Below are positions 1,210 through 1,567 of a DNA stretch of 1,567 nucleotides, piece by piece. The position numbers and the translations under genes were made by a program. The stretch lies in assembly GCF_003334355.1 (NCBI RefSeq), contig NZ_QOWP01000085.1; one strand, given 5' to 3'. The number at the start of each line of letters is the position of its first letter. Positions within the stretch are counted from its first letter, which is position 1. The DNA comes from Escherichia coli (GTDB taxonomy: Bacteria > Pseudomonadota > Gammaproteobacteria > Enterobacterales > Enterobacteriaceae). The notes under the pieces were generated by a model, which saw nothing but the letters and a program-made list of their open reading frames with translations, was not told where the DNA came from and ran no database searches.

Positions 1210-1567
1210 TCAGAACTTATAACCGACACCCACGATGAAACCGTCAGTGCGCCAGTCGCCACTGCCGGAGCCTTCATAAGCAATATCAATGGCCACGGAT
1301 TCGGTCGGGTTAAACTGCACGCCAGCTCCCCACGCCAGAGACGTGTTGCTGTGGCGACCGTCATCACTTCCGGTCAGCACGTCGTGCGTTTTCCCCTTGT
1401 TGTCAGTTACGCGGAGATAATCCCCGGAGAAAGTCGACACACGGCTGTAAGCCATACCCGCCATCGCATACGCGCTGAACCATTCATTCACGCGCACAGA
1501 CGGCCCCGCCATCACGCTGAACCAGCGGTTACGCACGGAATCTTCATGCCAGCGGGTATCGCTGTAA
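1210..1567 (-). CDS. lom: Lom outer membrane beta-barrel protein (Ail/Lom/OmpX/PagC family), C-terminal ~118 codons; true start lies beyond position 1567
   Basis: Minus-strand translation reads ...YSDTRWHEDSVRNRWFSVMAGPSVRVNEWFSAYAMAGMAYSRVSTFSGDYLRVTDNKGKTHDVLTGSDDGRHSNTSLAWGAGVQFNPTESVAIDIAYEGSGSGDWRTDGFIVGVGYKF then TGA (plus-strand 'tca' at 1210-1212). The frame stays open upstream of the track's GTG at 1536 through to the window end. The C-terminal aromatic residue and alternating hydrophobic last strand are typical of outer-membrane beta-barrels. Sequence matches my recollection of lambda Lom. Confidence 0.9.
   Translation of the reverse strand, partial: YSDTRWHEDSVRNRWFSVMAGPSVRVNEWFSAYAMAGMAYSRVSTFSGDYLRVTDNKGKTHDVLTGSDDGRHSNTSLAWGAGVQFNPTESVAIDIAYEGSGSGDWRTDGFIVGVGYKF

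Follow-up and report, generated by a model that had tools for sequence, protein, structure and literature searches.

The window analysed here, a 1,567-nt stretch of Escherichia coli DNA, carries parts of two genes on its minus strand, lom at the right and stf at the left, and a terminator-like hairpin in the spacer between them. Positions 1210 to 1566 of the minus strand translate as an open frame of 118 codons followed by a TGA stop (1210 to 1212). The frame overruns the right end of the window, and the 5' part of the gene lies beyond 1567. It is in phase from 1566, and reading from 1567 leads into stops; the preliminary description, which had the frame end at 1567, was thus off by one base. 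Based on translation and on matches to Pfam PF06316 and PHROG 108, this segment is the 3' part of lom (codons 82 to 199 plus the TGA), which by AlphaFold boundaries encodes the tip of loop 2 and strands 4 to 8; the signal peptide, strands 1 and 2, and almost all of strand 3 are encoded outside the window. The window's share of the Lom precursor is 118 of 199 codons, or 59%. The gene is therefore partial, with its signal peptide and first strands beyond 1567, as had been described, but the earlier figure of about 57% assumed the 206 aa of lambda Lom, whereas this allele has 199 aa.

The last strand of Lom and its C-terminal signature (...GFIVGVGYKF) are encoded at 1213 to 1242 on the minus strand, with the terminal Phe codon at 1213 to 1215, and the tail of the fragment peptide reads ...DWRTDGFIVGVGYKF. 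Translation (...GVGYKF) thus confirms the barrel signature and terminal Phe previously noted at this C-terminus. The final Phe is invariant in all seven aligned family members, OmpX included, and four of the six Lom sequences in this seven-sequence alignment agree over the whole tail. A tail of the ...GYKF type, with its terminal aromatic residue, is typical of outer-membrane barrels and would serve as a signal for the BAM insertion machinery.

The 5' part of stf occupies positions 3 to 1145 of the minus strand, with its ATG at 1143 to 1145; the rest of the gene lies beyond the left end of the window. In its product, an Ala/Ser/Thr-rich shaft comes after a conserved N-terminal domain. The assignment is based on translation, matches to PHROG tail-fibre families (down to E=5.5e-129), a match of residues 1 to 94 to PDB 9e7m ('Tail fiber protein'), and the stfR annotation in the E. 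coli chromosome NZ_AP027886.1. Three open reading frames lie antisense to stf on the plus strand (5 to 553, 133 to 648, and 566 to 922, encoding 182, 171, and 118 aa, respectively), and that at 133 to 648 is extremely Ala-rich. In all likelihood these frames are artefacts mirroring the GCN/NGC-rich codons that encode the Ala/Ser/Thr-rich shaft. A comparable antisense frame, 'orf206b', is annotated inside orf-401 in the lambda record. Weak matches to the Salmonella sRNA isrG were also obtained on the plus strand, antisense to Ala/Ser-rich stf, at 149 to 397 and 471 to 561 (30.6 and 24.9 bits, E=6e-6 and 3e-4, respectively; the gathering score is 100). The isrG model probably overlaps homologous prophage tail-fibre sequence, and these matches are no evidence of an sRNA here. 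At gathering thresholds the Rfam scan of the window returned nothing, and Tandem Repeats Finder reported zero arrays in it.

The complete gene, its terminators, and its prophage

Full-length matches to the window were found by megablast at 95% to 97% identity in many lambdoid phages, where they carry the annotations 'Lom' and 'side tail fiber'. The window is present at 100% identity (megablast, with a base-by-base check) in two complete E. coli chromosomes, NZ_AP027886.1 and NZ_AP027697.1. In both genomes it lies inside a lambdoid prophage splitting ydfJ (the Qin site), adjoining ydfK, pinQ, and a tail fibre assembly gene; the assembly gene beside the window is tfaQ in NZ_AP027697.1. Both prophages have the order tail genes - gpJ - lom - stf - tfa, and gpJ, lom, and stf follow one another in the same order in the phages 434, lambda, and PhiR30_1.

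Extending the gene rightward, as the preliminary description had proposed, recovers an intact lom of 600 nt and 199 aa (minus strand, L002:21210-21809, in coordinates of the NZ_AP027886.1 prophage), and the upstream frameshift or stop that would mark a pseudogene is absent in both identical genomes. The product is annotated as 'Ail/Lom family outer membrane beta-barrel protein' (WP_050867625.1), and a Shine-Dalgarno sequence, GAGAGG, is present upstream of the ATG. The N-terminus, MRKVCAAILSTAICLAVSGAPAWA followed by SEQQ, has by inspection the features of a Sec signal peptide, encoded outside the window: a charged MRK, a hydrophobic core (residues 4 to 17, mean Kyte-Doolittle hydropathy about 2), and an A-x-A pattern, with A-W-A and then S at residues 22 to 25. 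We are highly confident that window positions 1210 to 1566 represent the 3' 59% of an intact lambdoid-prophage lom gene, flanked by J (tail tip) on one side and stf (side tail fibre) on the other, and no observation speaks against this identity.

The terminase large-subunit gene of the NZ_AP027886.1 prophage (L002:38219-40144) has an internal stop; lom, J, and stf are intact. By this reading of its genes, the prophage carrying the window in NZ_AP027886.1 is probably defective. Given the terminase pseudogene, late-operon expression may therefore never yield virions there.

A scan located an intrinsic-terminator-like hairpin in the lom-stf spacer, at 1152 to 1183 on the minus strand (RNA fold -22.5 kcal/mol, z=-2.2). 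Its stem (1162 to 1183) has 9 bp, including 7 G-C pairs, and a 4-nt loop, is followed by the T-run TTTTTGTGGG, and lies 26 bases downstream of the lom stop. A second terminator-like hairpin is located outside the window, after the stop of J and before the ribosome-binding site of lom (L002:21839-21858, minus strand; 8 bp, 6 G-C pairs, then TTTTTATT). Lom is thus bracketed by terminator-like hairpins, both of which are annotated as terminators in the phage 434 record, and lambda has a comparable hairpin between J and lom.

One criterion for moron or lysogenic-conversion cassettes is an own terminator downstream, and lom has one in the hairpin at 1162 to 1183. Comparison of GC and GC3 with those of the flanking phage genes revealed no compositional moron signature in lom. 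Its GC content (55.5%) is no different from that of the tail genes (55.9% in J and 55.9% across the tail-to-head region), and there is therefore no compositional sign of a recently added 'moron'. A strict, consensus-only scan of the coding strand found no sigma-70 consensus-like promoter in the ~490 nt upstream of lom, and expression in the prophage state is therefore borrowed from lambda and Phi24B.

Family membership and predicted structure

The Lom fragment encoded in the window matched Pfam Ail_Lom (PF06316) with E=8.7e-72 over model positions 82 to 199 of 199, the generic Pfam family OMP_b-brl with 1e-13, and PHROG 108 ('Lom outer membrane protein') with E=1.8e-65. Chance is ruled out as the source of these Pfam and PHROG scores. 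The extended 199-aa protein matched PF06316 over positions 1 to 199 of 199 (E=3.1e-125). The preliminary description had placed Lom in the Ail/PagC-type family, a placement to be given up if profile searches against Ail/Lom models returned no family match. The searches returned a strong one, and the placement is borne out by the full-length PF06316 match, the signal peptide, the predicted barrel, and the prophage position.

An AlphaFold model of Lom, built on a shallow seven-sequence alignment, has a mean pLDDT of 85.6 and eight strands (residues 29 to 40, 47 to 58, 63 to 81, 86 to 106, 111 to 135, 141 to 166, 172 to 183, and 186 to 198). An N-terminal helix at residues 2 to 17, corresponding to the signal peptide, is positioned outside the barrel. 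In a Foldseek search against the PDB, the top matches of the model were Yersinia pestis Ail (3qra, E=1.7e-18; 3qra and 3qrc both about 2e-18) and OmpX (1qj9, E=3.5e-17), with OmpA, NspA, and OmpW further down. TM-scores of Ail 3qra and 3qrc against the model, normalised to the target, were 0.80 to 0.86. Among PDB sequences, Lom matched lambda Lom (9wso chain C, E=6.7e-50) as well as OmpX and Yersinia Ail (about 7e-19). Lom is thus predicted to be an eight-stranded antiparallel beta-barrel, nearest to Ail and OmpX.

Like the Lom model, Yersinia Ail, E. coli OmpX, and Salmonella Rck and PagC are eight-stranded barrels, and the turns and the ...GVGY(K/R)F motif are conserved among them. In contrast to these chromosomal or plasmid-encoded proteins, to which it is about 30% identical, Lom is longer and phage-borne, and its hairpins between strands 3 and 4 and strands 5 and 6 are longer than those of the Ail/OmpX members.

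A phage-434-type allele

Lom here shares 88% to 96% protein identity with the 199-aa Lom of phage 434 (91%) and Stx-converting phages, compared to 43% (BLASTP) with the 206-aa lambda Lom; in the alignment, the figure for the mature protein is 46%. By these identities, lom here is a phage-434-type allele, the commoner and less studied type. The Lom of 434 and of Stx-converting lambdoid phages has the same 199 aa, and the 434 record the same layout of J, terminator, lom, terminator, and stf. Differences from 434-type Lom are allelic only and occur mainly in the signal peptide and loop regions 1 and 2, whereas the receptor-binding domain of the neighbouring J is 42% identical to that of 434 over its last 76 aa.

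Lambda Lom (9wso chain C) belongs to the same family and shares with Lom here the position between J and stf, the plan of signal peptide plus barrel, and the last 27 residues; it differs in a longer loop 1. On the model, identity between the two proteins is 30% near the exterior tips, compared to 58% near the periplasm. An exception among the surface parts is the hairpin of strand 7, loop 4, and strand 8, which is 83% to 100% identical to that of lambda Lom.

At the DNA level, the lambda-like part of lom is its 3' end (1210 to 1337, minus strand). Similarity to lambda by blastn (86% over 1100 nt) begins inside lom at about 1337, continues leftwards across the terminator, and ends within stf at window position 238. 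Apart from one 58-nt island, neither the 5' three quarters of lom nor the last ~147 J codons resemble lambda. These alignments place a mosaic joint inside lom near 1337. Lom and its lambda counterpart end in the same 27 residues, while the last 132 nt of lom are 83% identical, with dS of about 0.7. Retention of these residues despite diverged synonymous sites points to protein constraint on the C-terminus, rather than recent exchange.

Among 434-type alleles, variable positions are clustered in the signal peptide and in loop regions 1 and 2. We considered whether the Lom allele co-varies with the receptor-binding domain of the neighbouring J. This was rejected, because near-identical 434-type Lom proteins (dN 0.002 to 0.013) adjoin three J C-termini that are mutually 39% to 63% identical. 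In the phage collection, searched with L002:21210-22326, both the J C-terminus and lom were matched in 44 of 208 records. Most of the matches listed share lom alone, from the last ~25 to 30 J codons on (match starts at query positions 367 to 433), and a few PPompW phages have the J domain in common plus only the first ~170 nt of lom. Breakpoints in this collection fall within the last ~25 to 30 J codons and inside lom. As far as these comparisons go, lom and the receptor-binding domain of J are freely exchanged with respect to each other, and the conserved end of J, ...SISDLLVVVMKKATAGISIS, has the look of a recombination linker.

Related lom DNA (80% to 100% identity) is present in 4698 of 5426 complete E. 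coli genomes, and in 4088 of those 4698 at least 80% of the gene is covered. The number of lom places per genome has a median of 2 and a maximum of 14. The gene is already known and is one of the commonest E. coli prophage genes. A lom match at near-lambda coordinates was also found in a 48.4-kb GenBank record, MW057783.1 ('Campylobacter phage CJLB-4'), with the identity and coverage of the lambda records. This entry is likely lambda DNA under a Campylobacter phage name, through database mislabelling or contamination.

Proposed action of Lom at the cell surface

From general knowledge of small outer-membrane barrels, the Lom precursor would be exported by Sec, cut by signal peptidase I, and inserted by BAM into the outer membrane via its C-terminal aromatic signal, with the long hairpins between strands 3 and 4 and strands 5 and 6 projecting from the cell surface. 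If lom behaves like the published lambda and Phi24B genes, it would be transcribed alongside the late tail genes and, weakly, while the prophage is repressed, and its expression would alter the surface of lysogens and infected cells alike. The likely effects, the more probable first, would be host surface conversion and/or a block of adsorption by the cognate phage. Prophage-expressed lambda Lom improves adhesion to epithelial cells, according to PMC3594210, which cites Vica Pacheco et al. 1997. Lysogens and induced cells express Phi24B lom equally (PMC3342100), and expression of lambda lom in lysogens has been reported (PMC12366544). Adhesion to eukaryotic cells is the only published phenotype of Lom in a lysogen. 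By analogy, host surface conversion is likely for the allele here. Of the lysogenic conversion stated in the preliminary description, the family and the intact prophage gene hold, and the conversion label itself derives from published work on Phi24B Lom and on lambda Lom, the latter 43% to 46% identical to Lom here (PMC3594210, PMC3342100, PMC12366544).

Serum resistance and adhesion had likewise been named as properties of the family. The 199-aa Lom was compared with the NCBIfam equivalog models for Rck (NF011777; E=8e-33, 113.6 bits, cut-off 258) and OmpX (NF006917; E=6e-28, 97.8 bits, cut-off 176) and reached neither cut-off. By these scores, Lom here is a homologue of Rck and OmpX and not an equivalog. 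Serum resistance and invasion are documented properties of Ail and Rck, and neither is known to be conferred by Lom. Since both equivalog cut-offs are missed, with Rck at 113.6 against 258, serum resistance stands as a family association only and is not predicted for Lom here.

Lom may instead be directed at phages, masking a phage receptor in the outer membrane of the lysogen or producing cell so that sister virions avoid unproductive adsorption (self-exclusion), a tentative alternative to which we give a minor but appreciable chance. In a 2025 selection study (PMC12366544), overexpressed lambda Lom conferred strong protection from lambda-vir and none from T7; the study also noted that related barrel proteins block adsorption and proposed superinfection exclusion or protection of progeny phage. 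The location of lom directly between the receptor-binding genes J and stf is consistent with such a role, as is strong expression of Lom late in the lytic cycle, described in PMC12366544 and PMC9836094. PDB 9wso contains lambda Lom (two chains) together with maltoporin LamB, the lambda receptor, whose sequence is common to 8xcj, a J-LamB complex. Neither J nor Stf, sought as Lom partners, was found in 9wso. The presence of lambda Lom and LamB in one entry suggests that a Lom-LamB complex has apparently been solved; our literature search found no paper describing 9wso or such a complex.

However, the block of lambda-vir and the LamB complex, like the adhesion phenotype, belong to the lambda allele, which is 43% to 46% identical to Lom here and 30% identical in surface-proximal parts, and prophage-level Lom fails to stop lambda-vir in the laboratory (PMC12366544). 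Nor do Lom alleles track the J receptor-binding domain, given the 39% to 63% identity of the adjoining J C-termini and the joint match in 44 of 208 records, and a search of Lom against the PADLOC-DB 2.0 defence-protein models found no family at E<=0.01. Receptor masking is thus possible for the 434-type allele and is unsupported by the data here. The more specific proposal, that 434-type Lom masks another outer-membrane protein via its divergent hairpins and that Lom alleles would form a family of receptor masks reassorting independently of J, appears unlikely.

It is very improbable that the lom fragment is a decaying pseudogene remnant in a defective prophage, with no current function. The internal stop in the terminase large-subunit gene of the NZ_AP027886.1 prophage would fit such decay, but the full lom frame is intact in both identical genomes, and among the matches listed from complete E. 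coli genomes lom is annotated as intact. Moreover, seven diverged 434-type alleles from phages and chromosomes are all 600 nt long and stop-free, with pairwise dN/dS of 0.04 to 0.42; these values, mostly 0.2 to 0.4, indicate purifying selection on lom. That the gene is a host chromosomal ompX-, ail-, or rck-type gene is hardly credible, as the NCBIfam Rck and OmpX matches and the OmpX and Ail structure matches that would suggest it are countered by the missed equivalog cut-offs (113.6 vs 258 and 97.8 vs 176), by the location of lom between gpJ and stf within a prophage, and by phage Lom being the best family match.

As it stands, identification of the segment as the 3' part of an intact prophage lom is of little consequence beyond the correct annotation of a very common prophage cargo gene. 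Wider interest attaches only to the purpose of Lom: 45 years on, adhesion is the classical answer and receptor masking the recent suggestion. If the 434-type protein were a receptor mask, any part in virulence or adhesion may be secondary for Lom here. Since the surface hairpins of the 434 type are strongly unlike those of lambda, the lom gene described here would be a natural comparator for experiments on this question.
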